DNA from: Deltaproteobacteria bacterium
GTDB lineage: Bacteria; Desulfobacterota; Desulfobulbia; Desulfobulbales; SURF-16
NCBI GenBank assembly: GCA_024277655.1
Contig: JAJRUT010000077.1
Span: 3,867-67,866, forward strand
DNA length: 64,000 bases
Direction: 5' to 3'
Position 1 is the first letter of the stretch; each line of letters begins with the position of its first letter. Shown here one piece after another: positions 673 to 44,413 of this stretch. The translations under genes were made by a program, and so were the position numbers. Below the pieces are notes generated by a model. The model did not search any database, had not been told where the DNA came from, and saw nothing but the letters and a program-made list of their open reading frames with translations.

Positions 673-2136
673 TCATCTTTGCCAGTATTCCTTTTTAAGT
701 ATGATTTCCGCCGGTACCTCTTGAAAATTATCCTGGATCCAGACCATGTTCCGGGCCTCGTAATAGGCGTAGCGCATAATTAGTTTATAGGCCATGCGGA
801 TAAACTGGTTGGTGGAAAAGAACATCTTCCAGAAGATTATTGGCCTGGTGTAGTATTTCCTAAGATATTTCTTTTGCAGGGCAAGGATCTCCTCCCCGTT
901 ATAGGCGTTGTTTTTAATCACCGGATTCATAAAATCGTACTTTGCAAAATCCCGCTCCTCGATGCGGTTTTCTTCCTCGCAATGTTTATAATAACGGGTG
1001 CCGGGCAGGGGTGTGGTGAGGGTCATCACCAGAAAATCGCCAAGTTCTGTGGCAAAATCAAAGATGGCGGCCAAGGTCTCCTCGGTGTCATCCACGTCAC
1101 CGAACATGACATTGGTCATCACCATGATACCGTGGGATTTAAGGATTTCCGCCGCCTCCCTGATCTGTTCAGCCGATTGATTCTTGGTGTAGTTTTTAAG
1201 GGCTGCAGGCGAAATGGACTCCACTCCAAGCATCACCTCGTAGAGGCCAAGTTTGCGAAATTCTTTTAGTAAATCCTTGTCGCGCAGGATGTCCTTAATC
1301 CGCGATTGAAACCAGAAATCACATTTTAGTCCTGAGTTGCCCAGAGATTCAAGAAAATCCTCGTTGCGTCTGCGGGTCTGGTTAAAGGAGTTTTCATTGA
1401 AGACAAAGAGGGATTTGCCGTATTTTGCCTGGAGCATCTCCATCTCTTTGACCACAAGATGTCCCGAGCGCCCGCGCCATTTGGCGTTCCATAGCTGTGA
1501 TTCCGAGCAGTAGGAGCAATGATCGCCACAACCGCGACTGGTGGAAATGCCGGTCATCCGGGTGCCCATCCCATGTAGATAATAGGTGGGGTTCATGATA
1601 TCCAGCAGGTGATAGCCCGGCATGGGCAGACTGTCGAGATCGGCAATCTGGGGTCTTGATTGGGTAAATTTTATTTCACCAGCCTTTTTATAGGCGATGC
1701 CTTTAATGGTGCAGTCGCTGTTCTTTTCAGGGAGATTGTTGAGTAACTCTGTAAAGGTAAGCTCTCCTTCGCCAAGGACGATAAAGTCAACCTCAGGGGC
1801 CTGAGCGAACATTACCTCATAGTTCAGGGTGAAATGACCACCGCCACCGATGATAATTGCGTCCGGTAAACAGCGGCGCACCTGGCGCACGGCGTGGATG
1901 GCGTCTTTGTGGAAGGTTGCGGCCTGGCAGGTCACGCCAACCACATCGTATTTTCCGGCCTTTAGTTTTTGCTCAAGATCAGACCAGGGCTGTTTAAGGG
2001 TGGTGGAATCCAACACCTCAACAGCAAAACCTTCCCGTTCAAGGTAGGCGCCAAGAGCCATAAGGCCGGGGGATGGCATCCACATTCTGAGGGCGGCAAA
2101 AATCTGGTGGGGTGGGTCAAGTAGGAGTATTTTCAC
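673..2136 (-). CDS. B12-binding domain radical SAM protein (class B rSAM), about 490-510 aa type
   Basis: CX3CX2C motif in RGCGDHCSYCSE. N-terminal Rossmann-like B12 region (VVGVTC...IIIGGGGH). Paralog of 40909-42447. The longest ORF reaches 2205, but a GTG at 2136 (VKILLLDPPH) matches the short N-termini of the paralogs and cuts the overlap with the upstream gene to 20 nt. Confidence 0.85.
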   Translation of the reverse strand: MKILLLDPPHQIFAALRMWMPSPGLMALGAYLEREGFAVEVLDSTTLKQPWSDLEQKLKAGKYDVVGVTCQAATFHKDAIHAVRQVRRCLPDAIIIGGGGHFTLNYEVMFAQAPEVDFIVLGEGELTFTELLNNLPEKNSDCTIKGIAYKKAGEIKFTQSRPQIADLDSLPMPGYHLLDIMNPTYYLHGMGTRMTGISTSRGCGDHCSYCSESQLWNAKWRGRSGHLVVKEMEMLQAKYGKSLFVFNENSFNQTRRRNEDFLESLGNSGLKCDFWFQSRIKDILRDKDLLKEFRKLGLYEVMLGVESISPAALKNYTKNQSAEQIREAAEILKSHGIMVMTNVMFGDVDDTEETLAAIFDFATELGDFLVMTLTTPLPGTRYYKHCEEENRIEERDFAKYDFMNPVIKNNAYNGEEILALQKKYLRKYYTRPIIFWKMFFSTNQFIRMAYKLIMRYAYYEARNMVWIQDNFQEVPAEIILKKEYWQR

Positions 2137-3028
2137 TGCTGTAGGTGCTCCAATAGTCAAAGAATTGATACCATTGATCAGGGTGTTTGCGGATATTCTT
2201 TTCAAACACCGAGGCCAGTTCCTGGGTCTTTTGGGCGATTAGTTCATCGTTACTGATGCCTGGTTGCCTGGTAACCATAATGGGTTTTTCCATCCAGGCC
2301 TGATATTTATTATCCGGACGCAGGGTTATAAACACCGGGATAATCGGCGCTCCGGTGGCCTGGGCCAGGACAAAGGCGCCGGATGGGAAGTAGACCTTGC
2401 GACCAAAAAAAACAACCTCACTCTTCTTGCCACCCACGAGCCTGTCACCGAGCATGGCGATCACCTGATTATCCCTTAGCAAACGGGCCATCTTTAAAAT
2501 CGTGCCGTGGTCATTTGGGTCAACATGGATGGTCTTGATGCCAAGTGAGCCCCGAACCTCATCCCGGTAGTCCTGCACCATATCTTCATCGTCTTTTAGG
2601 GTGAGGGCGTGGATCGGGCAACCGCGCAGGGCAAAGGTGACACCGCCAAGCTCCCAGTTGCCGAGGTGGGGGGTGATGAGAATTGCGCCATTGCCGTCTG
2701 CTAATGCCTTTTCTATGTACTCTGTGCCGATTTCACTCGCCACTGTTTCCTTATAATTTTCTTTGCTGAGATCATGGATCAGGACATAATCCCGCAGATA
2801 CAAGCCGTAGTTACGAAAGAGCTGAATCACCGTCTCTTTGACCTGGGGATCATCCTCGGCTAGTCCCATGACCTGGGCCGTATTGGTGTGCAGTACCCTC
2901 TGTTTTGAACCCCATAAATAGTAAAGACAGACACTTACCACCTTATTCTGTACAAGCTGCCACCAGCGCGGGGCCGTTTTGGCAAAGATATAGGTGAGGA
3001 GGAGGTATGGTTTTTTGGGGAAGAGCAT
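2117..3028 (-). CDS. Lysophospholipid / lipid A-type acyltransferase (LpxL/HtrB family)
   Basis: 303 aa. PHLGNWELGG matches the HX4(D/E) acyltransferase motif of the LpxL family. The size is typical. Confidence 0.7.
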   Translation of the reverse strand: MLFPKKPYLLLTYIFAKTAPRWWQLVQNKVVSVCLYYLWGSKQRVLHTNTAQVMGLAEDDPQVKETVIQLFRNYGLYLRDYVLIHDLSKENYKETVASEIGTEYIEKALADGNGAILITPHLGNWELGGVTFALRGCPIHALTLKDDEDMVQDYRDEVRGSLGIKTIHVDPNDHGTILKMARLLRDNQVIAMLGDRLVGGKKSEVVFFGRKVYFPSGAFVLAQATGAPIIPVFITLRPDNKYQAWMEKPIMVTRQPGISNDELIAQKTQELASVFEKNIRKHPDQWYQFFDYWSTYSSENTPT

Positions 3029-3118
3029 AAATTAGGCTTAAGGCTAAAGGTTGGAAGGGTTAAGGGGGTAGGGCTAAGGGTGCTACGTCATCTATCTGCT
3101 ACATTGGGCTGCGACCGC

Positions 3119-4597
3119 CTACTGAGCCTTTTTAGAAATCGTATTGGCGGCAAAACTGCCCGATAGTCCAGCCCCGACGATGCCGTGGGCGGGGCGGGTA
3201 TAATGGCCGATCCACAGCAGGTTTTTGAGCCTTGTCTGGGTAGGGGGCCTGCGGGGGCCGACCTGGTTCATGGCGGCATCAAGCCCGTACATGGCCCCTT
3301 CAATATTACCGGTGCGAAGGTGCAGGGTATGCGGGGTGGCGTATGTGTCTAAAACAACATTACTACCAAGGTTTAGGTCTGTTTTATCTAGAATGACCTT
3401 AAATACTTTTTGCTGAAGTCTTTTGATGTTTTCAGGGCTACCCTGGTCTTTGAATTTGTCAAGATGGGGGGCATGCACCAGAATTTTCAAACTGTGAAAA
3501 CCCTTGGGGGCCAGGCTTTGGTCGAGTAGGGATGGGGTGGTAATAACCAGATGCAGCCCCGCGTCCATATTGCCCTGTTCGATGGCCTGGCATTCCTGCT
3601 CAGGATTCTTGCCGGTGTGGAGCGAGACAAAATAGGGCCAGTCTTTGGGGAGGGCTGATTCTTTGATGCCGAGATAAAATAGCACGGCTGAGGGCGACAC
3701 GGTGTACTGATCCAGGTCAAACATTTTGGTGTAGAGTTTGGTGGAACCGGTCAGTAGCTCTTGGCCAATATATGGGTTCATGGCGCCAATATACCAGTCT
3801 GCCCGATGGGTATGCCCATCGCTTGTGACCACACCCTGCACCTGTTGCCCATCTGTTTTGATCTCCTGAATAGTACTGTTTTTAATGGTGATGCCACCGT
3901 TATCTGTAATGGCTTGGGTCAAAATGTCGGTGAGTTGTACCATACCACCCTTGGGGTAAAATACGCCATCCTTCAAGACCTTGGCCCAGAGTACGGCTAC
4001 AAAAATATAGGAGAGCTTTGAGGGGGGCAGGGTGCTTGGGAGAGCCGACAGGCCATGGTAAATCTCGTCGTTATCGCCGAAAAAATGGTGGAGGATCGCG
4101 CCGTGGGAGTGGCGGGCACATTTAAACAGGGTACGGTACAGGATGGGGAGTAGGAACTTTTTCCAGATGGGCGCCCGTTCAAAGGCCAGAAATTCCTGGC
4201 CTAACCGGGCGGTGAGTTTGGCGTATTCCTCCAGGGACACCGCATGTTGGGGGAACTCTTTTTTGAGGGTTTCAACGTAGGCCAGCGGGTTTTTATAATA
4301 GAGATTTAGTTCATAGGTCGGATAGATATTACGGATGGCGGGAATCTGGATAAAATCAAGTTTTTCTGCAAGGCCAATCTCCTGAAATATCTCGAAAAAC
4401 TCACTGCCAGGCAGGCAGGCCGCAAGGAACGAGCCGGTGGCATCAAAATAGAAGTCGTCACGCCTAAAGCCACTGACATAGCCCCCGGTTTTCTCCTGTT
4501 TTTCGAGGAGCGTCACCCGAAATCCCCGTTTGGCAAGGAGCGCCCCGGCAGAAAGTCCTGCCATGCCGCCCCCCATAATCAGTACCGATTCAGTCAT
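3119..4597 (-). CDS. FAD-dependent oxidoreductase, phytoene desaturase (CrtI)/amine oxidase-like
   Basis: N-terminal dinucleotide fold IMGGGMAGLSAGALLAKRGFRVTLLEKQEKTGG. About 490 aa. C-terminal GHYTRPAHGIVGA. Paralog of 39428-40903. Confidence 0.75.
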   Translation of the reverse strand: MTESVLIMGGGMAGLSAGALLAKRGFRVTLLEKQEKTGGYVSGFRRDDFYFDATGSFLAACLPGSEFFEIFQEIGLAEKLDFIQIPAIRNIYPTYELNLYYKNPLAYVETLKKEFPQHAVSLEEYAKLTARLGQEFLAFERAPIWKKFLLPILYRTLFKCARHSHGAILHHFFGDNDEIYHGLSALPSTLPPSKLSYIFVAVLWAKVLKDGVFYPKGGMVQLTDILTQAITDNGGITIKNSTIQEIKTDGQQVQGVVTSDGHTHRADWYIGAMNPYIGQELLTGSTKLYTKMFDLDQYTVSPSAVLFYLGIKESALPKDWPYFVSLHTGKNPEQECQAIEQGNMDAGLHLVITTPSLLDQSLAPKGFHSLKILVHAPHLDKFKDQGSPENIKRLQQKVFKVILDKTDLNLGSNVVLDTYATPHTLHLRTGNIEGAMYGLDAAMNQVGPRRPPTQTRLKNLLWIGHYTRPAHGIVGAGLSGSFAANTISKKAQ

Positions 4598-6995
4598 CCT
4601 GGTGTTCCCTTAGGGACAGGAGGGCGGGGAGGGATACGGCTGAAAAGAAGAAGCAGGAGGAGACGCCGATGATGGTGAGCATCCCCATATCAGCCAGGAC
4701 ATGATACTTAGCTAGTGCCAGTGAGCCAAAGCCGAGGCAGGTGGTGAGTGAGGTAAGGAGGATGGAGCGTCCGGTGGAGGTAATGGTTGTTTTGATGCAC
4801 CTGCTCTCCCGGTAGCGATCCATAATATGGATACCATCATCAAGACCAATACCGATTAAAATGGGCAGAATAATAAAGTTGATAAGGTTAAAACTGATCC
4901 CCAGCCAGCCCATAAGACCGGTGGTGACGATCACGCCAAGTATCATTGGTACAAGGGCAAGAAAAGAGGTTTTCAGACTTTTGAAAAAGACGAGAAGAAT
5001 GGTCACCACAATGACAAAGGCCAGACCAACCGTTTGCACCATATTACCTTTTGCTGTCTCCATAAGGGACGATAAGGCCATATCGAGGGTCACCACCATG
5101 ATGTCCTGATCCTGCCAGAGTTTTTGCAGACTAGCTATCACCTCTGGCGATCTGCCATTTACCCAGGTGATGCCTATAATCTTGCCGTTTTCTTCAATAA
5201 AGAAGCGTTGATGGAGTTTTGCACTGGAAAGGGTTGTGGAGGGAGTTCTAGCCCGATGGCTGATTAGTGTTGTTAATGATGGGAAGGACTCGGTCGTAAG
5301 CTTGTATTTAGCAAGGGCAGAGGCCAGATTTTTCTGGCCTGTCTCGCTGATCGTAAAGGCTGTGGGGGAGGTCACTGTGGTGAGGGAGGCAAAACTTGCG
5401 ATATTATCGCCAAGTCCTGCAAGATCCGCATCAATCCGGGCTGATTTTTGCCAGAACTCTTCCTTTGTCGAGGCCTCAAAGCTAACGAAGATACCGGTAA
5501 TACCCTTTGAAAAATGATTAAAAATAGCAGAGCGTACGGCAAGGGCCTCAAGGCCTTCCGGGTGGAGGGCCTCAAGTGATCGTTCAAAATGGATATTTTT
5601 TAGGCCAGGGGTGGCAAGAAGGAGGATGATTCCGGATAGGATAAGGAGTTTCTTTGGGTGCTGATCAACAAAATCTGCCAGTAATCCCGTGCCGAGGAGG
5701 GAAAAACCTTGGTGTTTCTTGCCGGGATTACGTCTGTCGAGCCAGTTTAGCCAGGCTGGCAGGGCCAGGAGGATGGCCAGCAGGGAGAAGAACAGGCCAA
5801 GGGCCACCAGCCAGCCAATCTGTTGGAGAACCGGGGTGCCGGTGAAGGTCAGGACGATAAAGGCGGTGAGACTGGTGAGTCCACCTGCAAAAACGGCAGA
5901 TCCGGTACGAAATATTGCCCGGTGGGTGGCCTCTTCAGCGCTTGCGCCAAGGGCGCGTTCGGAGCCGTAGCGATCATATACATGGATGGCAAAATCAACC
6001 CCAAGGCCAAGCACCACCGCTGAAAAGGCCACTGAGATAATATGTACCTGACCGAAAAGAACAGCCATCACCCCAAGGGCCAATTGCAACCCCACGGCAA
6101 GGGGCAGGATAATAAACACAAGCACTGAAAAACGTCTGTAGGCCAAGAGAAAGAGCAGGCTGATACCGAGTATGGAGCCGATCATACAGGTGATGATATC
6201 CCCCTTCATCACCTGTTCTTCCTGGGCGGCAATAACGTAGCCGCCGGTAATGCCGATTTTAAGATCGGCAAAGTCGTGGAAAACCGTGTGGCAGGCAACA
6301 ACAAGTTCCTTGGCGTGTTTCTGTGGGTTGTCGGACGTTGCCGGTGTGCCGATGACAATGATTGCCTCACCATCGGCCGCCATCATCTCCGGACGCGTGG
6401 CAAAGTCCATCGAGCCTTGCATGGATCTTAGTTTGGCAATGAGAAAACGGCGCAGATTAAGTGGGTCTTTGACCACCATCGCCGCAAGATCGCCACTTCC
6501 TGGGGTGGCAAGGAGCGCCAGTGAACGGCGGATCTCCCGGTCAAGATCCTTTGGGGAATTAAAAAAACGGGAAAGTTCGGCATGGTCTGCACCATTTAAA
6601 AATAGGCCAGGGTCAGCAAGGTACTTATCGAGCAGATGACTGAATTCCGCTGAACTTACCGCCTCGGCCTGGAGCATGGTGAGCCGTTTAAAGGCAGGCC
6701 CATCACCTGTTTGTATATGTTTAAGCCGGGTAATAAGCTCTGTGGTCTGGTTGATCAGCCCCTCTTCATCACCCCCTGCACCCTCCACCAGAATATACAC
6801 CTTCTCCTGCCCGTCTGAAGAGGTGACCGAGTGGGATAGGAGCTTAAAGGCGCGATTATCCTGGGGTAAAAGGCCAAGAATATTCTGCTCAAATTTTAAG
6901 AGACCGGTGATAAGTACAGCCAAAAGGAGAACTGCACAAAATCCGAGCAGAACACGTCCCGGATGCCGGGTAAGAAGTTTGGTGGCTTTATTCAT
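4590..6995 (-). CDS. MMPL/RND-superfamily membrane exporter
   Basis: 801 aa with two blocks of multiple hydrophobic helices separated by large soluble loops. This architecture matches the predicted exporters of aryl-polyene-type clusters. 8-nt overlap with the downstream gene. Confidence 0.65.
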   Translation of the reverse strand: MNKATKLLTRHPGRVLLGFCAVLLLAVLITGLLKFEQNILGLLPQDNRAFKLLSHSVTSSDGQEKVYILVEGAGGDEEGLINQTTELITRLKHIQTGDGPAFKRLTMLQAEAVSSAEFSHLLDKYLADPGLFLNGADHAELSRFFNSPKDLDREIRRSLALLATPGSGDLAAMVVKDPLNLRRFLIAKLRSMQGSMDFATRPEMMAADGEAIIVIGTPATSDNPQKHAKELVVACHTVFHDFADLKIGITGGYVIAAQEEQVMKGDIITCMIGSILGISLLFLLAYRRFSVLVFIILPLAVGLQLALGVMAVLFGQVHIISVAFSAVVLGLGVDFAIHVYDRYGSERALGASAEEATHRAIFRTGSAVFAGGLTSLTAFIVLTFTGTPVLQQIGWLVALGLFFSLLAILLALPAWLNWLDRRNPGKKHQGFSLLGTGLLADFVDQHPKKLLILSGIILLLATPGLKNIHFERSLEALHPEGLEALAVRSAIFNHFSKGITGIFVSFEASTKEEFWQKSARIDADLAGLGDNIASFASLTTVTSPTAFTISETGQKNLASALAKYKLTTESFPSLTTLISHRARTPSTTLSSAKLHQRFFIEENGKIIGITWVNGRSPEVIASLQKLWQDQDIMVVTLDMALSSLMETAKGNMVQTVGLAFVIVVTILLVFFKSLKTSFLALVPMILGVIVTTGLMGWLGISFNLINFIILPILIGIGLDDGIHIMDRYRESRCIKTTITSTGRSILLTSLTTCLGFGSLALAKYHVLADMGMLTIIGVSSCFFFSAVSLPALLSLREHQDD

Positions 6996-7112: not shown

Positions 7113-8699
7113 TTAATAGGGCCTCTGGTAATTTTTAGGCTTTAATTTAAGTAATGTCGAGGCGACTTTGCACAGCAACCGCCCCTGCCAAGGTTTACCA
7201 TATTTTTTGGGATTCGGATGGAGAAAGCATAACCGTTTGCATTTGATCTTCTGCATCCGCTCCGCAAAATCCTCGTAGGGCCTGGACATATCCAGGGGTT
7301 TTTTGAAAAAATCGGTGAGATAATAGCCAAAGGAGGTGTAGGTGGAGTTGCCGTACTCGCCGTGGGCATGATAAAAATCGCTGAAGGTCTTGCGGTCGGT
7401 GACGATGCCGTAATGATCCGGGTCAATCTGCCAGGGGGCACCCGGTTCCATTTCGATGGAAAGCGTGCGCAGTCCGCGGATATGTTTAAAACGAGCCATC
7501 AGGGTTTTACGCAGTTTAAAGGTGTCCTCCATGATCTTTTCATTTTCACCAGGCAATCCATAGGTGAAGAAGATCTCGGTTGATATCCCCCGGGAGTCCA
7601 GCTTCTCCATGGTTTCAAGGAAACGTTTGGTGGTAAAACCCGGTCCCTTATGGCGCAGGCGCAACTCCTCATTACCCACCTCAGGCGACATGGCAATGAT
7701 GGAATCTTTACCAGGAAAGGTCTTTTGAAATTCGTCAATAAATTCATCTGTTGGCAAGCCGTTGGCCTCAAACATCCAGTTAACCTTGATACCCTCGGCC
7801 CGAATCTTCTGCCATAACTCGATAAAATATTCCTGGGTGACAGGTTCCGGGTCGGTGGCGGTGTGCATGGTCTTATAACCTGCAGCGATGCCATCCTTTA
7901 CCGTTTTGATAACGGCCTCGTGGGAGCGGTAGATAAACCCCACCCGTGTTGAGATATGCCGCTGCTGGGGGATATGGGAACCACCACACCAGGTACAGTT
8001 AAAGGGGCATCCCCGGCCAATGGCAACCGGCAGAAGGGGCGAGCGGATGGTAAATTGTTTGAAGTTCTGTTCCTTGCTGAACCCTTTGGCGTAGAAAAAC
8101 GGCAGACCAATATACTGGATATAGGTGTCCCGGTGCCTTAAGAGCTTAAAGTTTGTGTAATTTAACTCTGAGACCAGTTTTTCATCACCCACATAGGTAT
8201 GTTCATTAATTTTAACGCCGTTATCGCGATAGGTGAGATTTTGGACCGACTTTAGCGAGGTGCCATCTTTAAAGGCAGTTAACAACTCCAGGGTCGGGAT
8301 CTCACCATCGCCGCGGATGACCCCATCAATCATGGGGTATTGGTCAATGATCTGCTCATGGAAGAATGAGGCGGTGAAACCACCGAGAAAGATAAAAATA
8401 TCAGGGCGCAGTTCTTTAATTTTGCGCGCACATTCAATTACATCATAGGCTTGGTAATGCCAGTGTATCGGCATACCGATGGCCTTGATCTCAGTGTCTT
8501 TGAGGACTTCGTCGATCTTAAAAAGTCGATTCTCCACCCACTCCACCCCCACATGGATGATCTCCGTCTCAAACCCATGCTGCTTAATATAATCAGCAAT
8601 GGCAAACAACCCCTGGGGCATATAGTTGATCCAGATAAAATCGCCGATTGGTTTGTAGGAGTTATTGAATTTTGGGACGTGGAGGAAGAGGGTTTTCAT
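7113..8699 (-). CDS. B12-binding domain radical SAM protein (528 aa, distinct subtype)
   Basis: RGCPFNCTWCGG (CX3CX2C). N-terminal MKTLFLHVPKF...IFLGGFTASFF B12-like region. Confidence 0.8.
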   Translation of the reverse strand: MKTLFLHVPKFNNSYKPIGDFIWINYMPQGLFAIADYIKQHGFETEIIHVGVEWVENRLFKIDEVLKDTEIKAIGMPIHWHYQAYDVIECARKIKELRPDIFIFLGGFTASFFHEQIIDQYPMIDGVIRGDGEIPTLELLTAFKDGTSLKSVQNLTYRDNGVKINEHTYVGDEKLVSELNYTNFKLLRHRDTYIQYIGLPFFYAKGFSKEQNFKQFTIRSPLLPVAIGRGCPFNCTWCGGSHIPQQRHISTRVGFIYRSHEAVIKTVKDGIAAGYKTMHTATDPEPVTQEYFIELWQKIRAEGIKVNWMFEANGLPTDEFIDEFQKTFPGKDSIIAMSPEVGNEELRLRHKGPGFTTKRFLETMEKLDSRGISTEIFFTYGLPGENEKIMEDTFKLRKTLMARFKHIRGLRTLSIEMEPGAPWQIDPDHYGIVTDRKTFSDFYHAHGEYGNSTYTSFGYYLTDFFKKPLDMSRPYEDFAERMQKIKCKRLCFLHPNPKKYGKPWQGRLLCKVASTLLKLKPKNYQRPY

Positions 8700-26607: not shown

Positions 26608-26610
26608 GCA

Positions 26611-31350: not shown

Positions 31351-31411
31351 TTTTGAGTGGGGGCAAAGGATTAAGGAGAAGGAGTCGGCGCTTTTTTGTT
31401 GCCTTTATTTT

Positions 31412-31497: not shown

Positions 31498-31537
31498 TTC
31501 AGCCGAGATGATAATAGGTCGGGTGGTATTCGTCACT

Positions 31538-32221: not shown

Positions 32222-32366
32222 GAGTGTTTCCTTAAGGTTTACAAGGTGAAAAAATGAATGGAAAAGATGGGTAATAGTTGTTATAATTCTCCCTTTACCG
32301 CGATTCTGTTGGTATCACTGAATAGATATCTTGAAAACTGTAGTTTTACTAACTTTAAGGACGAAA

Positions 32367-36535: not shown

Positions 36536-37186
36536 ATGAAATATTTTATGTCATGGGTTCTTGCCTTGCTCGTGTTGTCCCAGGCTCCTGTTGTTCTGGC
36601 AGCTGAACGGCAAATTGACGGGGCTGAGGCGGAGGCGCTTCTTTTGCGGATTAAAGAGAGTCAGGTCACGATTACGACCATCATTGGTTCTTTCAGTGAA
36701 GAGCGGATGATCAAAACCATGCCGGTGCCGTTAATCTTCACAGGTAAGGTTTATGCGAGACCACCTGAGTTTTTATTTCTCTCCTACGAGGAGCCTATCC
36801 AGCATATTATGAAGGTCACCGGTGATACGGTGCTGTTTTATGTTGTCGACTCGGCCACCGCCGATCAGATTAATTTGCAAAATGTGGCTGAGGGTGGGGC
36901 ACCGCCAAATCTCTTTGGTTGGGATCCCAGCGATTTTAAGGGTAAAATCCTTGAAACGGCCACTGGGTATATGCTGTATAATCCAGAGGTTAAGGCCGGG
37001 GGGCGGGAAATACGGATTACCCTGGATAAAGAAACCCTGATGGTTCAGGCCCTTATCATGCAAGAGCCGGGTGGGGATGTAACCAAGATTATAATGAAAG
37101 ATTTACAGGTGAATGGTGAAATTCCGGATGCCATTTTAAACTATACCCTGCCGGATGGAGTAAATATCAATAAGATGGGCCAGTAA
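36536..37186 (+). CDS. LolA-like periplasmic lipid/lipoprotein carrier
   Basis: Signal peptide ...VVLAAE. About 190-aa mature size. The GKVYARPPEFLFLSYEEPIQHIMKVTGDTVLFYV pattern resembles the LolA family. The start abuts the upstream stop (TAGATG). Confidence 0.5.
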   Translation: MKYFMSWVLALLVLSQAPVVLAAERQIDGAEAEALLLRIKESQVTITTIIGSFSEERMIKTMPVPLIFTGKVYARPPEFLFLSYEEPIQHIMKVTGDTVLFYVVDSATADQINLQNVAEGGAPPNLFGWDPSDFKGKILETATGYMLYNPEVKAGGREIRITLDKETLMVQALIMQEPGGDVTKIIMKDLQVNGEIPDAILNYTLPDGVNINKMGQ

Positions 37187-37292: not shown

Positions 37293-39425
37293 ATGACTGA
37301 GTCGTATAAAATAGCCATTACAGGTATGGGTATCATTACTCCGGCAGGGTGCGGAGTTGCCCCCTTTGCCAAAGCTCTTTTTGCCGGAGACCATCAATTT
37401 TCCCCAATCCGGGGTTTTGCTGCCAATCTCCACCGTACCCAAGTTGGCGCTGAAATTACCCGTTGCGACTATTCTGCCAATCGTCTTGATATGTCTACTT
37501 TGGCAAGGACAGATCTCTTCGCTCTTGAGGCTGCCAGTCAGGCCTTGACTGATGCCGGTCTTCTCGATGCTGACAGGTTATGTCTTGCCCCGCATATGGG
37601 AGTTGTCTGTGGCACGGCGGGTGGTGCTATTTCTGGTCTTGAAACCTTTTTTTCTAATAGGTTTCACGGCAGGTCATGTGAGGCAAAATCACTGTTAAAC
37701 TCATTTTGCCTGTCGGCTCTTGCCACTAATATTGCCAGGGAGTTTCAGATTGAAGGCCCCAGAACCACCCTTGCCACCGTTTGTTCTTCAAGTGGCCTGG
37801 CGTTGGCTAGGGGTTTTGAGATGCTCCTAACCGATAAGACGGTGGATCATGTTCTGGTGGTCGCCGCCGAGAGTCTGTCGGAGGTAACCCATGGCGGGTT
37901 TAACGCCCTGCGCTCCGTTGCCCCTGAACTATGCCAACCCTTTGATGTGAACAGAAAGGGCTTGATCCTTGGTGAGGCAGGGTGTGCGTTGGTCTTAAGC
38001 CGTGTTGGCCCATCTAAATATGGTTATCTGGCAGGCTATGGACTCACCACCGATCTTTATCATTTTACCGCCCCTGATCCGCAGGGTGGAGCCATTGCCA
38101 CTGCCATCAGCAAGGGGTTATCCCATGCGGGAATTACGGCTTTAGATGTTGATTATATTAATTGCCATGGTACAGCGACGCCAAAGAATGATGCGGCTGA
38201 AGCCAGGGGCATAGGTGCTGTGTTTAAAGACCGGCGTATTCCGGTTTCTTCGACAAAATCCATGTTTGGTCATACCCTTGGGGCGGCAAGTTTGCTTGAA
38301 GCCATTGCCACACTCCTCGGTATGGCAAAGGAGTTGCTACCTCCTTCCGCGAATCTTGATACCCCTGATGATTTTGAGTTGGATGTTGTTACCAGGGCAA
38401 GACCATGTAAGATAAAAGCGGCCCTATCTAACTCCTTTGCCTTTGGCGGTTCCGATATCTCCCTCGTCTTGACCACGGATCATTCACCAAGGCATAGCTT
38501 TCGGGAGCCAATAACAGAGGCGGTGATCACCGGTATTGGTGTTGTCTCGCCGCTCGGGATTGGCTGTGATACTTTTAAGACCAATGTTGCAGGTGGGGAG
38601 TCTGGTCTGCAGTCCATGGCTCTGTTTGGTTCTGAGTTTACGATGCCGGGTGGTTTGGTTGATATGACCGAGGTGCGGAGCCATATCCCCTTGAAGCGCC
38701 GACGCAGGTTGAATCGCCTTGGCAGTTTTCTCAGCGTTGCCGTGGCTGAGGCCTTAAGTCAGGCGGGTCTTGTTGATGATGTCTCAGGTCTGGCCATGGT
38801 ATATGGGTCGGCCTTTGGTTGTTCGTCCAATGTTCATCAGTTTTACTCGAAAATACTAGAGGGTGGGGCTGCCACCGCTTCCCCCCAGGAATTTATGTTT
38901 TCCGTAACCAATGCCCCGGTTGCCCTTGTGGCCCAGCACCTGCAAATTCCCGGTGAGGTGTGGGTGCTGGTGCAAGATGAGGTCTCCTTTGAGGCAGCTC
39001 TCCATTATGGTGCCATGCTCATTGAAACCGGTAAGGAACAACGGGTGATTGTCGCTGCCGCCGATGAGCTTAGTGACTCAATCCTGGCCATTCATCAGGG
39101 CCTTGGCTTTTTTGCTGGAGATTATGTGCTGGGTGAGGGGTGTGTGGCTCTGGTTCTTGAAAATAGGTATATGGCAGTTGGGCGGCAAGCGCAAATTATA
39201 GGGAAAATCAAACTATGCGAAATGAGTCAGGATCCAAGCTGTGGGCCGGTTGATTTTAGTATGCATGGCCTGGTAGGCAATGACTTTCATTCCCGTATCG
39301 GTCAGTCCGGTGTGGTGGGTGGTTTAACCCTTGTGGCCGATATCCTTGCTGGCAACCACAATGACATTAAGGTCGTCACTCGTAGTCGTGGCGGTATCAA
39401 TGCTACAACCATGGTGTCACGGTAG
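37293..39425 (+). CDS. Fused beta-ketoacyl synthase + KS-like (CLF-like) didomain protein
   Basis: 710 aa. The N-terminal half has ATVCSSS, CHGTATPKND and GHTLGAAS. The C-terminal half (from about aa 410, AVITGIGVVSPLG) is thiolase-like with RRRRLNRLGS but lacks the His motifs. Confidence 0.8.
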   Translation: MTESYKIAITGMGIITPAGCGVAPFAKALFAGDHQFSPIRGFAANLHRTQVGAEITRCDYSANRLDMSTLARTDLFALEAASQALTDAGLLDADRLCLAPHMGVVCGTAGGAISGLETFFSNRFHGRSCEAKSLLNSFCLSALATNIAREFQIEGPRTTLATVCSSSGLALARGFEMLLTDKTVDHVLVVAAESLSEVTHGGFNALRSVAPELCQPFDVNRKGLILGEAGCALVLSRVGPSKYGYLAGYGLTTDLYHFTAPDPQGGAIATAISKGLSHAGITALDVDYINCHGTATPKNDAAEARGIGAVFKDRRIPVSSTKSMFGHTLGAASLLEAIATLLGMAKELLPPSANLDTPDDFELDVVTRARPCKIKAALSNSFAFGGSDISLVLTTDHSPRHSFREPITEAVITGIGVVSPLGIGCDTFKTNVAGGESGLQSMALFGSEFTMPGGLVDMTEVRSHIPLKRRRRLNRLGSFLSVAVAEALSQAGLVDDVSGLAMVYGSAFGCSSNVHQFYSKILEGGAATASPQEFMFSVTNAPVALVAQHLQIPGEVWVLVQDEVSFEAALHYGAMLIETGKEQRVIVAAADELSDSILAIHQGLGFFAGDYVLGEGCVALVLENRYMAVGRQAQIIGKIKLCEMSQDPSCGPVDFSMHGLVGNDFHSRIGQSGVVGGLTLVADILAGNHNDIKVVTRSRGGINATTMVSR

Positions 39426-39427: not shown

Positions 39428-40903
39428 ATGGCTGATTTTGACGCTGTTGTTATCGGTTCAGGCCTTGGCGGACTTACCACTGCCGCATTGCTTGTAAAGC
39501 AGGGGCTAAAGGTATGTCTGCTCGAAAAGAATAACAGGCTTGGCGGTTATGCGGTTAATTACACGGCTCGTGGTCATCGCTTTGATGTGGCGACCCAGGC
39601 CCTTGGGGGGTGTGGTGAGGGCGGGATTGTCTCGGCCCTTCTTAGAGACCTTGGTCTTTATAATAAGCTTACCTTTCTTCCCTGTGAACCGGCGCGAATC
39701 TATCATTTCCCCGACTCACCAGCCCCCTTTATTCAGCATGGGTTCCTCAAGGAGCAACGGAACCTGCTATGTTCACTCTACCCCGATCAGCGGCTGGCGA
39801 TAGAAACCTGTTTTGAGGTTTTTACCACGCTCTTTGCTGAGTTGCAGGACATTGCTGTGGCTGATACCAGCCCGTTGTTTGGTTTTAGTAAAAAATACCC
39901 GGCCCTTGCCCGCTATGGACGGCTGACGGTTAAGGAATTTTTTGACTCGTTACACCTCCCTGAGAAATTACAGATAAGAATTGGTGCCAGGTCTGGTTAT
40001 TGTATGCTCCCCCTGTCTGATTTGTCACTGGTGGCTTTTGCCTGTACTGAAATGAGTTACGGGGGCGGGGCATGGATGGTGCGGGGTGGCGTGGGGCAAC
40101 TGGTTACGGTGCTTGGCGATTATCTTCGTGAAGACAGGGTTGAGATTTACAGGAAAAGCAGGGTGGAGAGACTTTTATTTGCCGGTGACAAGGTTGTTGG
40201 CGTAGAGACACGGCAGGGCAAAAAAATCACCGGCAAAGCGGTTGTCATGGCTGTGGATGGCTCGGGAATTTTGGCGCAATCAGAGGAACCCTGTGCGCCA
40301 CTTCTGGCAAAATATAAAAAAATGGCATGCACTGGTTCCTATCTTGTCAGTTATTACCAGGTTCCGCTGGATTGTGTCGAGAATATGCAGGCCAATATTG
40401 AAGTCAGGCTTCCCAGGCAAATCATTGCCGAGACAACAAAAATAGATGTATATTACCTCCTTATTCCGTCCTTGGTTGATAAGGATTCAGCACCGGAGGG
40501 TAAGCATTCATTTTGTGTTTCAGTGCCCCTTCGGGCGGGTGTTATGCCGGATCATCATGAGCGTCTTGCCATTCGCATGCGCCTTGAGCAACTGGTGGTG
40601 GAGTTATATCCCCGGTTGGCAGGTAAGTTAAGTTTTTTGTTTACACTTGGGCCAGATCACTTTAAGTCCATGACAGGTAACAGTAATGGCGCGGCCTACG
40701 GTTTCTCTCAGACCGTTAGTCAATCCGGGATCTACCGTTTAGGCAATAATCCCAGGATTGCTGGACTTTATCTGGCCGGACACTGGACCATGCCCGGTGG
40801 TGGGATTGCCGGGGTGATGACCTCTGGGAAATTATGCGCGCGAGCTGTGATTAATGATGTTTGTCACCTTGAAAAGTTAACCTCTAAAAGCATGCCATCC
40901 TAA
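39428..40903 (+). CDS. FAD-dependent oxidoreductase, phytoene desaturase (CrtI)/amine oxidase-like
   Basis: VVIGSGLGGLTTAALLVKQGLKVCLLEKNNRLGG. C-terminal LAGHWTMPGGGIAGV. Paralog of 3119-4597. Confidence 0.75.
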   Translation: MADFDAVVIGSGLGGLTTAALLVKQGLKVCLLEKNNRLGGYAVNYTARGHRFDVATQALGGCGEGGIVSALLRDLGLYNKLTFLPCEPARIYHFPDSPAPFIQHGFLKEQRNLLCSLYPDQRLAIETCFEVFTTLFAELQDIAVADTSPLFGFSKKYPALARYGRLTVKEFFDSLHLPEKLQIRIGARSGYCMLPLSDLSLVAFACTEMSYGGGAWMVRGGVGQLVTVLGDYLREDRVEIYRKSRVERLLFAGDKVVGVETRQGKKITGKAVVMAVDGSGILAQSEEPCAPLLAKYKKMACTGSYLVSYYQVPLDCVENMQANIEVRLPRQIIAETTKIDVYYLLIPSLVDKDSAPEGKHSFCVSVPLRAGVMPDHHERLAIRMRLEQLVVELYPRLAGKLSFLFTLGPDHFKSMTGNSNGAAYGFSQTVSQSGIYRLGNNPRIAGLYLAGHWTMPGGGIAGVMTSGKLCARAVINDVCHLEKLTSKSMPS

Positions 40904-40908: not shown

Positions 40909-42447
40909 ATGACAAAATCAAAAACAAAATTTCTTCTGGTTGATCCCCCCCATCGTATCTGGGATATCTTAAAGGCGTGGATTCCGTCCCCCGGTTGTCT
41001 GCAACTTGCCGCCTATTTAGAGGATTATTTCAGCATAGATTTCATGGACTGCACCCTTAATAAAAGTCCATGGCATGATCTTGAAAAGAAACTTCGCGCT
41101 GATCGGCCTGATGTTGTGGGTATTTCCATTGGTTGTACCTATTTTACCTATGATGGTTATAACGCCGCTTCACTAGTGCGTGATATCCTGCCTGATGCCG
41201 TGATTATTGTTGGTGGGGCGCATCCTACCCTAAATGCTGATGAGTGTTTTGCTGATTGTCCTGAGATTGACTTTATCTGCATGGGGGAGGGGGAGTACAC
41301 CACCCGGGAGTTTCTTGAGAATTTTGCTAAGGGCAACCCTGACTACTCGCATATCAAGGGTCTTGCCTACAAAGATGAACAGGGCAATCTTGTTATTAAC
41401 GAAAAACGGCCCCTAATTGAAGATCTTGACTCCCTGCCCATCCCGGCCTACCACCTGGTTGATATGGAACATCCTTATATTGGTCTGCCCTCTGAGGGTA
41501 AGCGGGCGTTCTTGGTGAACTTTGCCAGGGGCTGCGGTTTCCGCTGTAAATTTTGTTCAGAATCTGTTTTTTGGGAGCGGAAATGGCGGGGGCGTTGTCC
41601 TGAGCTGATTGGTGATGAGCTTGAACTCTTGAAAAAGACCTATAATCGCGACACCTTCTATGTCGGGGATAACATCTTTAACTTTACCCGTGAACGCTCC
41701 AAAGGGTTTATCAGCGAGATGAAGAAGCGCGACTTAAAGCAGAATTTCTGGTTGCAGTCCCGGGCCGATATTGTCGTGCGGGATGCTGATCTTATGGCCG
41801 GCTTTAAGGAGGCAGGGGTTTATCAGTTTATGATTGGCGTGGAGTACTCTAGTCAGGAGGTTCTAAATACCCTGGATAAGGATATCTCCATGCAGACGGT
41901 TGAAAAGGCCATGCAGATCCTCCAGAAGCATCAGTTTATGATTATGGCAACACTCATGATTGGTCACTGGGACGAGACAGATGAGGATCGCCAGAAGCTG
42001 TTTGATTTTTGTACCAAATATGTCAATCATTTTGGCCTCAATGTCGTGACACCACTGCCTGGGACGGAGTTTCACACCGAGATGAAGGCCCTGGGGCGGG
42101 TGGAAAACGTTGATTACCGTAAATTCGATTATATTCAGGCCATCATGCCCACAAAGGAGATTGATGATCTTGATAAAATCACCGAACTGCACCTTGGCAT
42201 GATCCGCAAATTCTATTGGCGACCCATTGAGCTGTGGCGCACGTTCTTTTCAAAGAATAAAATCCTCCGCCATCACCACCGCTACTTTATGAAGTACGGT
42301 TTTGAAGTGGCCCAGCACGAGATTTTTGGCAAACCACTCTGGGTGCAGGAAAACTTCCAGACCTTTGAATCCTTCCTGCGTGAGCGCGGAGTGCCTATTA
42401 ATGGTAGTTTTGCCGGGTATGAGCCGGATGAGAGTGTGGAAATTTAA
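40909..42447 (+). CDS. B12-binding domain radical SAM protein (512 aa; paralog of 673-2136)
   Basis: ARGCGFRCKFCSE. FLLVDPPHRIW...SPG...VVGISIG...IVGGAHPT. Its C-terminal region aligns with that of 673-2136. Confidence 0.85.
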   Translation: MTKSKTKFLLVDPPHRIWDILKAWIPSPGCLQLAAYLEDYFSIDFMDCTLNKSPWHDLEKKLRADRPDVVGISIGCTYFTYDGYNAASLVRDILPDAVIIVGGAHPTLNADECFADCPEIDFICMGEGEYTTREFLENFAKGNPDYSHIKGLAYKDEQGNLVINEKRPLIEDLDSLPIPAYHLVDMEHPYIGLPSEGKRAFLVNFARGCGFRCKFCSESVFWERKWRGRCPELIGDELELLKKTYNRDTFYVGDNIFNFTRERSKGFISEMKKRDLKQNFWLQSRADIVVRDADLMAGFKEAGVYQFMIGVEYSSQEVLNTLDKDISMQTVEKAMQILQKHQFMIMATLMIGHWDETDEDRQKLFDFCTKYVNHFGLNVVTPLPGTEFHTEMKALGRVENVDYRKFDYIQAIMPTKEIDDLDKITELHLGMIRKFYWRPIELWRTFFSKNKILRHHHRYFMKYGFEVAQHEIFGKPLWVQENFQTFESFLRERGVPINGSFAGYEPDESVEI

Positions 42448-42472
42448 GGGGAACAGGGCGCGACTGCGGCGT

Positions 42473-42853
42473 TTATGCCCTTGATTCACATAACTGCCCA
42501 TACACCCGCTTCCACTCTTGCACGGCAATGAGTGTCTGGCCCCGGCGGAGAAAAACCCTTAGCTCGCAGGCCACCATGGCGGGTTGCCCTTTATCATTAT
42601 GGTAATCCACCTGGATCACGTAAAAGATGGATGAGTAGGTCTTCTTTTGAAAGGCGCGAAGGTTTGTAATCTGTGCCAGGGGGATGTTGAGGTTGATGGC
42701 GGCTGTCTTTTTAGTTGCCGGGATTTTGAGGGCAAATCCTGCCGGTGACAGGGTGGCTTTACCTAGTTGTTGGCGTTCGGGTAAACCAAGGGTCGAGGCG
42801 TGGAAAATTATTTTTGCGCAGATTGTGTTTTCAGGTTTTGAGAATAGGCCCAT
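42473..42853 (-). CDS. Hypothetical protein (126 aa)
   Basis: Clean ORF with no motif I recognise. Divergent from the rSAM gene at 43025. Confidence 0.35.
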   Translation of the reverse strand: MGLFSKPENTICAKIIFHASTLGLPERQQLGKATLSPAGFALKIPATKKTAAINLNIPLAQITNLRAFQKKTYSSIFYVIQVDYHNDKGQPAMVACELRVFLRRGQTLIAVQEWKRVYGQLCESRA

Positions 42854-42880
42854 ATTTAACCTTTTAGTTTATAAAAAAGC

Positions 42881-43007
42881 AGTAGTGTCCGGTTTAACTC
42901 TTGCGCCGGATAAATATAGTGTTTGCCTGCGCTTATGAAAGACGCTTCAATAAACACTATATTCATCCGGCGTTTATGCTCTCGCAATTTTCTAACCGGA
43001 CACTACT
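42881..43007. repeat. Nested inverted repeat (127 nt) in a divergent intergenic region
   Basis: Outer arms AGTAGTGTCCGGTT (42881-42894) / AACCGGACACTACT (42994-43007). Inner arms GCCGGATAAATATAGTGTTT (42904-42923) / AAACACTATATTCATCCGGC (42952-42971; one mismatch). Flanked by A runs. Confidence 0.8.
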
Positions 43008-43024
43008 GATAAAAAAAGTAAAAA

Positions 43025-44413
43025 ATGCAAAGAAACAAAAAGAAAATACTCTTTATTTCACCAGCCAGAAACAGGGGGCCGGATGAAGACTTCATCTTCA
43101 AACTCAGCTTTCTTAATCTCCCCTATCTTGCCGGGGTTACACCGGATCATTATGACGTTGAGATTATAGACGAAGAACGCAATGTTATCAACTTTGATGA
43201 TGATGTCTGGCTTGTGGCGTTAACGGCTCAAACCCCGATTGCCCCTAGAGCCTATGAGGTTGCGGGTGAATTTCGCAGGCGGGGGGTGACGGTTATTATG
43301 GGCGGGGTGCATGCCTCGACCTTGCCAGATGAGGCGCTTTGCCATGTGGATTCGGTTATTATTGGTGAGGGTGAATTTGTCTGGCGCCAGATTCTTGATG
43401 ACCTGGAGGCCGACAGTCTGCAAGAACGTTACTCCAGCGGCACCACCCATTCCCTGGCTGGTCTGGACTGGCCCCGGCGTGATCTGTTGAATCCAAAACA
43501 TTACATTCCTCTGACCCTGATGGAGACCACACGGGGTTGTCCCCATCACTGTGATTTCTGTGGGGTGTCCAAGTTCTTTGGTCATAAATATCGTAAACGC
43601 CCCCTGTCTGAGGTGAAGGCGGAACTTGAATCATTGTTTGGTGGTGGCTTTCGCCATGCTTTCTCCCGTTTTCTGGCCAAAATGGGGCTGGATATGCCCT
43701 ATTTTATCGAACGCCGGCTTATTTATTTCATTGATTCAAATTTTGCCGCCGATAAAAAATATGCCGTCAGCATCATGGAGGAGCTTAAAAAACTCGATGT
43801 GAAATGGTGGTGTCACGCCACGGTGGATATTGCCAGTGATCCCGATTTTCTTACGAAGATGAATGAATCAGGGTGCTTGGCGGTTAATGTCGGTTTTGAA
43901 TCTCTGTCGCCAGAAAATTTAAAATCCATGCATAAATCCTATGCCGCAAAGCACGATTATCCCAAGGCTATAAAGGCCTTTCACGATCATAATATCGGTG
44001 TGATGGGCACCTTTGTGGTGGGGTTTGATGGGGAGGACGCGTCAATCTTTCGCCGGGTCTTTGATTTTTCCATTGATAATCAGCTTGACTGGTCACTTAC
44101 CTTTATCAGAACCCCGTATCCCGGTACCACTATGTATAACAAGATGGAGGAGGAGGGGCGGATTACGGTGCGGGACTGGGAGAAGTATGACACCCTCCAC
44201 TGTGTGTTTGAGCCTGAGGGTATGTCGGTACTGGAGCTTGAAGATGGCTTGAAATCGTTATGGAAATACACCTTTTCCATGAGTTCAATCTATCGCCGGA
44301 TCATTAAGGGGCCACGGGTACATCCGTTGTTTTATCTAGGGATGAATATGCAGTTCTTGCAGATGGTCAGGAAGTGGCGGGTCAAGTATGATCCCTTCGT
44401 GGACAAAGGGTGA
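43025..44413 (+). CDS. B12-binding domain radical SAM protein (about 462-aa TTRGCP subtype)
   Basis: TTRGCPHHCDFCGV. LVALTAQT...IMGGVHAS. GFESL. Confidence 0.85.
   Translation: MQRNKKKILFISPARNRGPDEDFIFKLSFLNLPYLAGVTPDHYDVEIIDEERNVINFDDDVWLVALTAQTPIAPRAYEVAGEFRRRGVTVIMGGVHASTLPDEALCHVDSVIIGEGEFVWRQILDDLEADSLQERYSSGTTHSLAGLDWPRRDLLNPKHYIPLTLMETTRGCPHHCDFCGVSKFFGHKYRKRPLSEVKAELESLFGGGFRHAFSRFLAKMGLDMPYFIERRLIYFIDSNFAADKKYAVSIMEELKKLDVKWWCHATVDIASDPDFLTKMNESGCLAVNVGFESLSPENLKSMHKSYAAKHDYPKAIKAFHDHNIGVMGTFVVGFDGEDASIFRRVFDFSIDNQLDWSLTFIRTPYPGTTMYNKMEEEGRITVRDWEKYDTLHCVFEPEGMSVLELEDGLKSLWKYTFSMSSIYRRIIKGPRVHPLFYLGMNMQFLQMVRKWRVKYDPFVDKG

Follow-up and report, generated by a model that had tools for sequence, protein, structure and literature searches.

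Four deeply separated families of B12 radical-SAM enzymes in a probable 'ladderane-type' lipid gene cluster of an uncultured Desulfobulbales bacterium

What do eight genes for B12-binding (class B) radical S-adenosylmethionine (SAM) enzymes do together in 44 kb of one bacterial genome? The question is raised by a 64,000-nucleotide stretch of contig JAJRUT010000077.1 from a Deltaproteobacteria bacterium (positions 3,867 to 67,866, forward strand; hereafter the window, whose own numbering is used below), for which a previous reading of the letters alone (the sequence-only reading) had suggested iterative or position-specific chemistry on one scaffold. We consider it likely, with a probability of about 0.6, that the window carries a 'ladderane-type' gene cluster for a type II fatty-acid/polyketide-like lipid, laid out in three modules (A, 0.7-15.6 kb, minus strand; B, 15.9-22.8 kb, and C, 32.3-44.4 kb, both plus strand) and equipped for tailoring by multiple enzymes, with one of the eight B12 enzymes as a bystander. 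The locus is a further case of a known, biochemically unsolved cluster type that was described in 2009 for Kuenenia and Desulfotalea. The host is, on sequence grounds, an uncultured member of the Desulfobulbales; the nearest relatives by protein were Desulfurivibrionaceae and Desulfobulbaceae metagenome-assembled genomes (MAGs) with 77-88% amino-acid identity, and one Desulfurivibrionaceae MAG matched two of the enzymes at 88% and 81% identity, with synteny.

All eight open reading frames (ORFs) were recovered in an ORF check of the window, and we refer to them by their first coordinate: 673 (673-2205, minus strand, 510 aa; also termed G2a), 7113 (7113-8699, minus strand, 528 aa), 14268 (14268-15602, minus strand, 444 aa), 20557 (20557-21918, plus strand, 453 aa), 29947 (29947-31350, minus strand, 467 aa), 33977 (33977-35347, plus strand, 456 aa), 40909 (40909-42447, plus strand, 512 aa; also termed G2b) and 43025 (43025-44413, plus strand, 462 aa). 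A Pfam scan matched PF04055 (Radical_SAM) together with an N-terminal PF02310 (B12-binding) domain in every one of the eight proteins; PF02310 exceeded the Pfam gathering score in seven of them, while 43025 scored 29.0 against 32.1, its N-terminal domain aligning with those of its paralogues through the B12 domain, GGxH motif included. The motif CxxxCxxC was present in exactly one copy per protein. By domain and motif content, all eight thus belong to the class B (cobalamin-binding) radical-SAM enzymes, and cobalamin use is predicted for them. The motifs listed in the sequence-only reading were largely as described: (I/V)xGGxH(A/V)(S/T) and GFESL occurred in all four group-1 proteins (14268, 29947, 33977 and 43025), LL(L/V)DPPH, SPG and RGCGxxCx(Y/F)CSE in both group-2 proteins (673 and 40909), and the motifs given for the singletons 7113 and 20557 were found in each; only the group-1 motif beginning with ETTRGCP had to be corrected to (E/Q)TTRGCPxxCxFCxV, with Q in 14268 and 33977. 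For 673-2205, the true start probably lies downstream of the TTG, at a GTG at 2136; this would yield 487 aa, in keeping with homologues of 480-484 aa. A ninth radical-SAM gene, of the SPASM type and without a B12 domain, was also seen at 32331-33650.

Pairwise BLASTP supported the proposed grouping by size and motif. The four group-1 members shared 34-42% identity with one another and the two group-2 proteins 40%, while identities between group 1 and group 2, and between either group and 20557, were 21-27%, and 7113 was barely alignable with group 1. Group 1 itself consists of two pairs, and 29947 and 43025 both carry some 25 additional residues behind the Fe-S motif. Each group-1 copy had its own orthologues in other Thermodesulfobacteriota at 59-88% identity. 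The values by copy were 88%, 72% and 56-58% for 14268, 81%, 77% and 47-51% for 33977, 79% and 61-70% for 29947, and 66%, 64% and 59% for 43025, followed in the last case by homologues at 52-54%. Compared with the three remaining window paralogues, these genes reached no more than 32-47% identity (mostly 33-44%); the group-1 duplications are therefore old and the copies specialised. The description of group 1 as four near-equivalent copies consequently does not hold, given 34-42% identity and separate orthologues for each copy, and a recent expansion, one of the two origins that the sequence-only reading had offered, was rejected on the same comparison.

Two residues beyond the third cluster cysteine, with positions equated by motif register and not by structure, 120 of 120 homologues of 20557 had Tyr, 120 of 120 homologues of 7113 had Gly, 120 of 120 homologues of G2b had Glu, and group 1 mostly had Val (106 of 150). 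Such a family-specific residue is consistent with different active sites. A profile built from the four group-1 proteins matched 7,720 clusters (50% identity) at E <= 1e-30, so group 1 is part of a very large and diverse family. In a plasmid search with 14268 for annotated HpnP, only generic 'radical SAM protein' matches were obtained; an unexpected array of B12 radical-SAM genes, with five separate group-1 matches of at most 40% identity, was noted on plasmid NZ_CP134684.1 of Citrobacter portucalensis.

Gene order in other genomes carries the case for a shared system. Both L083, a metagenome contig, and the cultured Dissulfurirhabdus thermomarina (L081) preserve module A gene for gene, and in both the three B12 radical-SAM genes lie in one co-directional operon. 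In Logan contig SRR24079432_4826, modules B and C together with the LuxE, LuxC and short-chain dehydrogenase (SDR) genes form one uninterrupted co-directional array whose right-hand flank is that of the window, and nothing there matches window positions 22.8-32.3 kb. Genes of the A and C types occur within 21 kb of each other in a further locus (L003), and two more loci (L040 and L076) hold contiguous group-2-like, group-1-like and TIGR04072-like genes, followed by SDR and ketosynthase (KS) genes. Group-1 and TIGR04072-type genes also stand side by side in MAGs of Planctomycetia, Omnitrophota, Nitrospirota and Kiritimatiellae and in one of Sumerlaeota (L039); among the top 120 homologues of G2b or of 20557, no anammox names appeared. 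Judged by this synteny, seven of the eight B12 enzymes and the SPASM enzyme are conserved members of one gene set, and the presence of eight such genes in 44 kb is not a matter of chance, because other genomes keep seven of them in conserved order alongside these lipid genes.

The remaining enzyme, 29947, is a class B radical-SAM protein with DUF4070 and without conserved lipid context. Its orthologues (61-79% identity, six loci) had no neighbours in common among the loci and were flanked by housekeeping genes (Der GTPase, aminotransferase, HisHF, DAHP synthase). The 9.5-kb interval in which the gene lies (22758-32330) has no counterpart in L085 and L086, where the cluster is otherwise collinear, and is apparently a lineage-specific insertion separating modules B and C; nor was 29947 present at the junction of the triosephosphate isomerase (TIM) and SPASM genes in a Desulfobulbaceae relative (L056). 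We take 29947 for a bystander that belongs to the same large family, since it has no conserved lipid neighbours and is missing in L085 and L086 and at the L056 junction. The sequence-only reading had argued from the sheer number of B12 enzymes in one locus; this number has to be lowered accordingly, and a single pathway containing all eight was rejected in view of the context of 29947 and its absence from L085 and L086.

The gene inventory points to an assembly line for acyl chains. It comprises two pairs of KS and chain-length factor (CLF), one split and one fused, one acyl carrier protein (ACP), a dehydratase and a ketoreductase, to which are added two CrtI-like enzymes, two SAM methyltransferases, LuxE and LuxC, an LpxL-type acyltransferase, a glycosyltransferase, a LolA-like protein and an MMPL protein, besides the cluster-linked radical-SAM proteins, that is, seven B12 enzymes from four deeply separated families and one SPASM enzyme. 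In the pathway that we propose, the KS/CLF systems would work with the ACP, dehydratase and ketoreductase to build an ACP-bound acyl or polyenoyl chain of set length, the unactivated carbons of which would be modified without oxygen by the CrtI-like and radical-SAM enzymes. The radical-SAM families, and within group 1 the three paralogues linked to the cluster, would each carry out a different reaction or act at a different position, with C-methylation, desaturation and ring or C-C bond formation as candidate reactions by analogy with other lipid-modifying B12 radical-SAM enzymes. LuxE and LuxC would reduce the carboxylate, anchoring of the product would fall to the acyltransferase and glycosyltransferase, and its transport to the outer membrane would be the task of the LolA-like and MMPL proteins. 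The idea of iterative or position-specific chemistry on one scaffold thus survives in part: several distinct class B families are present and most lie within one lipid-type system, although not all eight enzymes can be counted in. Since the families differ clearly and most are embedded in one lipid system, distinct position- or reaction-specific roles on a shared product are the most economical reading.

Comparison with curated protein families gave matches of graded strength. None of the eight B12 enzymes reached the curated cut-off of any NCBIfam model, those of characterised families included, and a placement of the copies in characterised non-lipid families, the outcome that the sequence-only reading had itself named as contrary, was not found. 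The closest match was that of 20557 to TIGR04072 ('lipid biosynthesis B12-binding/radical SAM protein', 'rSAM_ladder_B12'), which at 337.9 bits over the full model length stayed just short of the cut-off (360); homologues of 20557 at 57% identity (P0010) and at 43% identity (P0117, from Geomobilimonas) bear the name of this family at NCBI. The corresponding lipid-gene context was present as well, in that 20557 directly follows the KS/CLF genes in the window and in L086, a TIGR04072-type gene comes after KS/CLF in many genomes, and it adjoins SDR and KS genes in five other loci (L019, L022, L040, L046 and L076). The BchE model scored 245.9 bits for G2a and 236.1 bits for G2b (cut-off 481), and neither the window nor the orthologous loci contained bch or chl genes, the partners of group 2 there being CrtI-like, LpxL-like and KS genes; the identification of group 2 as BchE cyclase was rejected in view of scores at about half the cut-off and the lipid-related gene context. 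JGI names several G2b homologues (P0152, P0448 and P0463 among them) 'anaerobic magnesium-protoporphyrin IX monomethyl ester cyclase', which is probably a propagated misannotation, because the BchE score is half of the cut-off and the context is that of lipid genes. The singleton 7113 showed a distant likeness to the Ta0216 family TIGR04190 (185 bits, cut-off 500), and the NCBIfam matches of group 1, with BchE and HpnJ among the models, were weak at roughly 100 bits or below. DUF4070 was above its cut-off in 14268, 29947 and 33977 and not in 43025.

Among solved structures, the nearest to 20557 was TsrM (160 bits, both domains), a tryptophan 2-C-methyltransferase (PDB 6WTE/6WTF), and the TsrM equivalog model scored 165 bits against a cut-off of 500. 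TsrM carries an unusual polar residue, Glu236, between cobalamin and cluster (PMC12931638), and the corresponding position is Tyr in 20557; the group-2 family has Glu at this register (the 120 of 120 given above for G2b) and is otherwise not TsrM-like. Group 1 came nearest to 9CCB (62 bits), identified as the glutamine C-methyltransferase QCMT (PMC12931638), and group 2 to AprD4, QCMT and TokK (46-65 bits), while the PDB sequence search returned no match for 7113.

Among known systems, the best counterpart is a gene set reported in 2009 for Kuenenia stuttgartiensis, with striking synteny in Desulfotalea psychrophila, which comprises FabF paralogues, SAM radical enzymes, phytoene-dehydrogenase-like, phenylacetyl-CoA-ligase/F390-synthetase-like and MMPL-like proteins and a glycosyltransferase (Rattray et al. 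2009, PMC2649909). Kuenenia Cluster I (KustE3603-3608) encodes an ACP, FabZ, a KS, an inactive KS as CLF, a phytoene-dehydrogenase-like protein and a B12 radical-SAM enzyme (bioRxiv 10.64898/2026.05.19.726425), and all six gene types were found in the window, matched by gene type and not by gene-by-gene orthology. Likewise, 'ladderane' biosynthetic gene clusters have been called in Desulfobacterota, Omnitrophota, Planctomycetota and others (bioRxiv 10.1101/2022.12.20.521206). The Kuenenia and Desulfotalea clusters resemble the window in their ACP, FabZ-type dehydratase, active KS with an inactive KS/CLF, phytoene-dehydrogenase-like flavoenzymes, B12 radical-SAM enzymes and SAM methyltransferases, as well as in the LuxE/'phenylacetyl-CoA-ligase'-like and MMPL-type proteins and the glycosyltransferase, and Desulfotalea belongs to the same order as the window host. 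The window differs from them in having one fused KS/CLF, a U32-family protein and a Ta0216-like radical-SAM enzyme, and in its seven B12 and one SPASM cluster-linked radical-SAM enzymes, compared with the four SAM radical enzymes reported for Kuenenia.

Two other lipid systems share parts of this inventory. Aryl polyene and flexirubin clusters likewise contain KS/CLF, an ACP, an ApeP-like dehydratase (PF22817 in the orthologues), a ketoreductase, a thioesterase, an LpxL-type acyltransferase, a glycosyltransferase, a LolA-like protein (the best match here being flexirubin LolA2) and an MMPL exporter. Aromatic-starter genes (ammonia lyase, 4-hydroxybenzoate formation) were absent from the Pfam matches of the window ORFs, and we know of no aryl polyene clusters with arrays of B12 radical-SAM and CrtI-like enzymes. 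Hopanoid clusters include the CrtI-like HpnE and the MMPL-type HpnN, and HpnP, HpnR and HpnJ are class B radical-SAM enzymes like those of the window, acting on the hopanoid lipid. Pfam and NCBIfam scans of the window detected neither squalene-hopene cyclase nor squalene synthase, and the HpnR and HpnJ models gave 48-142 bits against cut-offs of 578-650, the best scores being 142 bits for HpnR (G2b; cut-off 650) and 135 bits for HpnJ (G2a; cut-off 578), with 48-101 bits for the group-1 proteins. The three-domain layout of HpnP and 'HpnP-like' proteins (B12, radical SAM and DUF4070) is that of three of the four group-1 proteins, a likeness by layout (PMC10697835); the same layout is common to many uncharacterised 'HpnP-like' clades (PMC10697835) and is therefore not proof of function.

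Precedent for varied oxygen-independent reactions on inert lipid chains comes from the archaeal enzymes of glycerol dialkyl glycerol tetraether (GDGT) lipids, GrsA/GrsB, Gmm, Cgm and Ted. Among lipid-modifying B12 radical-SAM enzymes, GrsA and GrsB introduce rings at different positions, HpnP, HpnR, Gmm and Cgm methylate, HpnJ performs a ring contraction and Ted a desaturation (PMC13459092; bioRxiv 10.1101/2025.10.20.683597). The archaeal substrates are isoprenoid tetraethers, whereas the substrate of the window enzymes is probably an acyl-ACP or a fatty-acid-derived lipid, and the weak TIGR04190 (Thermoplasma Ta0216) match of 7113 is the only pointer to an archaeal link by sequence.

Several observations speak against a single tailored lipid or leave room for other explanations. 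The modules are split and the LuxC gene is frameshifted, so that the pathway may be partly inactive in this genome, or the assembly may be in error. The two KS/CLF systems and the two pairs of CrtI-like and group-2 genes make two related products possible. They also fit a reading in which modules A, B and C each serve a different lipid and lie together as a neighbourhood of envelope-lipid genes, for which it may further be said that module A of D. thermomarina has no module B or C within 10 kb and that the arrangement of the modules varies between genomes. Linkage, however, survives rearrangement: the LuxE, LuxC and SDR genes belong to module A here and stand after module C in L085, L086 has modules B and C next to each other and in one direction, L003 has genes of the A and C types within 21 kb, and the whole region has a single ACP and a single set of LuxE/LuxC, dehydratase and ketoreductase. 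We regard such independent pathways as rather unlikely. A further weakness of the single tailored lipid is that no enzyme reaches a family cut-off, so all reaction assignments are by analogy, and another is that the 43025 type is also found beside heme genes. In Syntrophaceae and Syntrophorhabdus MAGs (L004-L012 and L017), homologues of 43025 at 52-54% identity lie directly upstream of a CcsB-like/HemA/HemC/HemD operon, and the CcsB-like gene follows the 43025 homologue in eight of eight Syntrophia-type loci, with a gap of 12 bp in one of them (L008, 10007-16045). Group-1 membership alone is therefore not proof of a lipid substrate.

These heme-linked loci, together with BchE and AhbD/NirJ as best NCBIfam matches of group 2 and the SPASM enzyme, could indicate a tetrapyrrole substrate, and SPASM and B12 radical-SAM enzymes are typical of the maturation of ribosomally synthesised and post-translationally modified peptides (RiPPs). 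We think either substrate very unlikely, as the scores are far under the cut-offs (236-246 against 481 bits for group 2 and about 100 against 500 for the SPASM enzyme), Pfam/NCBIfam scans and an ORF search revealed no tetrapyrrole or precursor-peptide genes in the cluster, and the genes that accompany these enzymes from phylum to phylum are those for KS/CLF, ACP, dehydratase, CrtI-like proteins and lipid export. Within the lipid field, the product could be a true ladderane, a lipid with concatenated cyclobutane rings. To our knowledge, ladderanes are known only from anammox Planctomycetota, whereas clusters of this type occur in many phyla other than that of the anammox bacteria. The gene content does fit the Cluster I proposed for anammox bacteria (bioRxiv 10.64898/2026.05.19.726425), 20557 scores 338 bits with the 'ladder' family TIGR04072, and antiSMASH and similar tools apply the label 'ladderane' to clusters of this kind (bioRxiv 10.1101/2022.12.20.521206); against this, ladderane-specific HPLC-MS/MS was negative for Desulfotalea psychrophila, whose clusters are syntenic (PMC2649909), and an experimental link of the anammox cluster to ladderanes is still missing (PMC13459092). 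A ladderane product in this host is, in our judgement, highly improbable, and the lipid made by the tailoring cluster that we favour is probably something else.

How anammox bacteria build ladderanes is a long-standing question for which radical-SAM enzymes are the prime suspects, and those of ladderane-type clusters remain uncharacterised (PMC13459092). Look-alike clusters occur in sulfate reducers, Planctomycetia, Nitrospirota, Omnitrophota and other phyla. The present locus overturns nothing and sharpens the list of candidates for ladderane-type chemistry, to which it adds at least four old, separately conserved radical-SAM families that travel together and are among the most conserved proteins of the cluster. 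An operon with three of them (a group-1 member, the 7113 type and the BchE-like type) is present in the cultured D. thermomarina, which, with Desulfotalea psychrophila, offers a tractable host for lipidomics and genetics. Two warnings for annotation follow: the BchE-like family should not be called chlorophyll cyclase, and the members of the very large group-1 family should not all be taken for lipid enzymes. More speculatively, and unlikely on present evidence, the cluster type, which is found across many anaerobic phyla, may make an undescribed class of heavily tailored, outer-membrane-directed lipid, with some of the four radical-SAM families performing new reactions on fatty-acyl chains, for instance ring formation or desaturation on acyl-ACP without oxygen; if this were true, the anammox ladderane pathway would be a specialised offshoot of a broader carbocycle-forming lipid chemistry.

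Module A, transcribed from the minus strand throughout, starts with 14268, orthologues of which occupy the equal position at 88% (L038), 81% (L083) and 72% identity (D. thermomarina), and is separated from the next gene by about 450 bp without a convincing ORF (13814-14267), for which Rfam gave no match. That gene encodes a FabZ/ApeP-like 3-hydroxyacyl-ACP dehydratase of 144 aa (13379-13813), which had escaped an ORF list with a 150-aa minimum and was located by tblastn with 50% identity to the ApeP-like gene (PF22817) of L083; the ORF was confirmed, and FabZ models scored 66-73 bits. It is followed by a LuxE-type acyl-protein synthetase (12327-13376; PF04443), whose start was set from 351-aa homologues, and by the LuxC-type acyl reductase (10940-12327), for which PF05893 matched on two overlapping ORFs. 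A tblastn search with the intact LuxC of L083 changed frame at residue 199, placing the frameshift near 11737-11740, which reflects either a real pseudogene or an assembly error. An SDR-type ketoreductase (10085-10816; PF13561 and PF00106) and a U32-family protein (8880-10049; PF01136) come next. The U32 gene always lay directly upstream of the 7113-type enzyme, both in the window and in L081 (8820-10004) and L083 (8652-9824), and its product was 70-83% identical in the latter two, a conservation like that of the radical-SAM proteins. U32 proteins include oxygen-independent hydroxylases, and the protein of module A may hydroxylate the lipid.

The 7113 enzyme, distantly Ta0216-like, has orthologues in equal operon position in D. 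thermomarina (66%) and L083 (82%). Behind it stand an MMPL/RND-type membrane transporter (4590-6995; PF03176 with a sterol-sensing domain), kept in both L081 and L083, a CrtI/phytoene-desaturase-family FAD oxidoreductase, copy a (3119-4597; PF01593; crtI_fam 141 bits, cut-off 238), an LpxL-type acyltransferase of the lipid A biosynthesis family (2117-3028; PF03279), which adjoins G2a also in L003, L081 and L083, and finally the BchE-like G2a, the last gene of this conserved operon, with 67% identity in L081 and 79% in L083. Across module A as a whole, the radical-SAM and U32 proteins were 66-72% identical to those of D. thermomarina and the other proteins 40-55%. Three extra genes lie between the MMPL and CrtI-like genes in D. 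thermomarina (L081, 14045-17029) and are absent from the window; they encode two DUF2229 proteins and a BcrAD/BadFG-type ATPase and resemble a 2-hydroxyacyl-CoA-dehydratase-like activator system.

Module B, on the plus strand, opens with a DUF4410 protein (15883-16545; PF14366), kept in four other loci (L001, L038, L083 and L086), and continues with the ACP (16606-16869; 87 aa, LGLDSVDALEL motif; PF00550), a 4HBT-type thioesterase (16893-17450; PF13279 and PF03061) and a family-2 glycosyltransferase (17447-18241; PF00535). The ketosynthase (18180-19394; PF00109 and PF02801) is predicted to be active from its Cys-His-His triad in comparison with E. coli FabF, and the following chain-length-factor-like, inactive ketosynthase (19339-20556) has the N-terminal KS domain only and lacks the catalytic Cys and both His. 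The TIGR04072-type gene 20557 is succeeded by a SAM-dependent methyltransferase (Methyltransf_23; 21888-22757), an order also found in L085 and L086.

Module C, on the same strand, begins with the SPASM-domain radical-SAM gene at 32331-33650 (PF04055 and PF13186), the product of which had AhbD and NirJ as best NCBIfam matches at the score given above; the gene travels with the cluster in six other loci (L003, L019, L040, L056, L076 and L085). Orthologues of 33977 in equal position were 81% (L043), 77% (L056) and 51-54% identical (L001, L003 and L085). A small membrane protein (Sm_multidrug_ex; 35335-35811; PF06695), kept in L003, L043, L056 and L085, precedes a Pfam-matched SAM-dependent methyltransferase (Methyltransf_11; 35855-36535) and a LolA-like lipid or lipoprotein carrier (36536-37186; PF03548), for which the flexirubin LolA2 model gave 54 bits (cut-off 125). 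The fused ketosynthase/chain-length factor (37293-39425; 710 aa) has two KS-type halves, with Cys-His-His in the N-terminal half and no triad in the C-terminal half. Copy b of the CrtI/phytoene-desaturase-family FAD oxidoreductases (39428-40903; Pfam and NCBIfam scans) is followed by the BchE-like G2b, an ortholog of which at 78% identity stands directly after CrtI in L085. Both CrtI-like flavoenzymes of the window are thus followed by a BchE-like radical-SAM gene, directly or after one acyltransferase gene. About 580 bp without a convincing ORF (42448-43024; no Rfam match) lie upstream of 43025, the orthologues of which (59-67%) adjoin the CrtI copy-b gene or G2b in L001, L002, L003 and L085.

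The interval between modules B and C holds, besides 29947, genes for a DUF2339-like membrane protein, a cytochrome c/4Fe-4S/NrfD-type complex, a redoxin and the TIM. The last of these (31538-32221, minus strand) is short at 227 aa, and it adjoins the SPASM gene also in the Desulfobulbaceae MAG L056 (1189-1869, 63% identity). An Rfam scan found no cobalamin riboswitch or other RNA, and there were no tRNA genes either. Promoter and terminator scans of 27.8-45.7 kb performed no better than on shuffled sequence, except for one strong terminator at 27910-27939, after the NrfD-type gene. GC skew was positive in every 4-kb bin of the window (1-64000; 0.02-0.14), whatever the gene orientation, and the whole window therefore lies on one replication arm.

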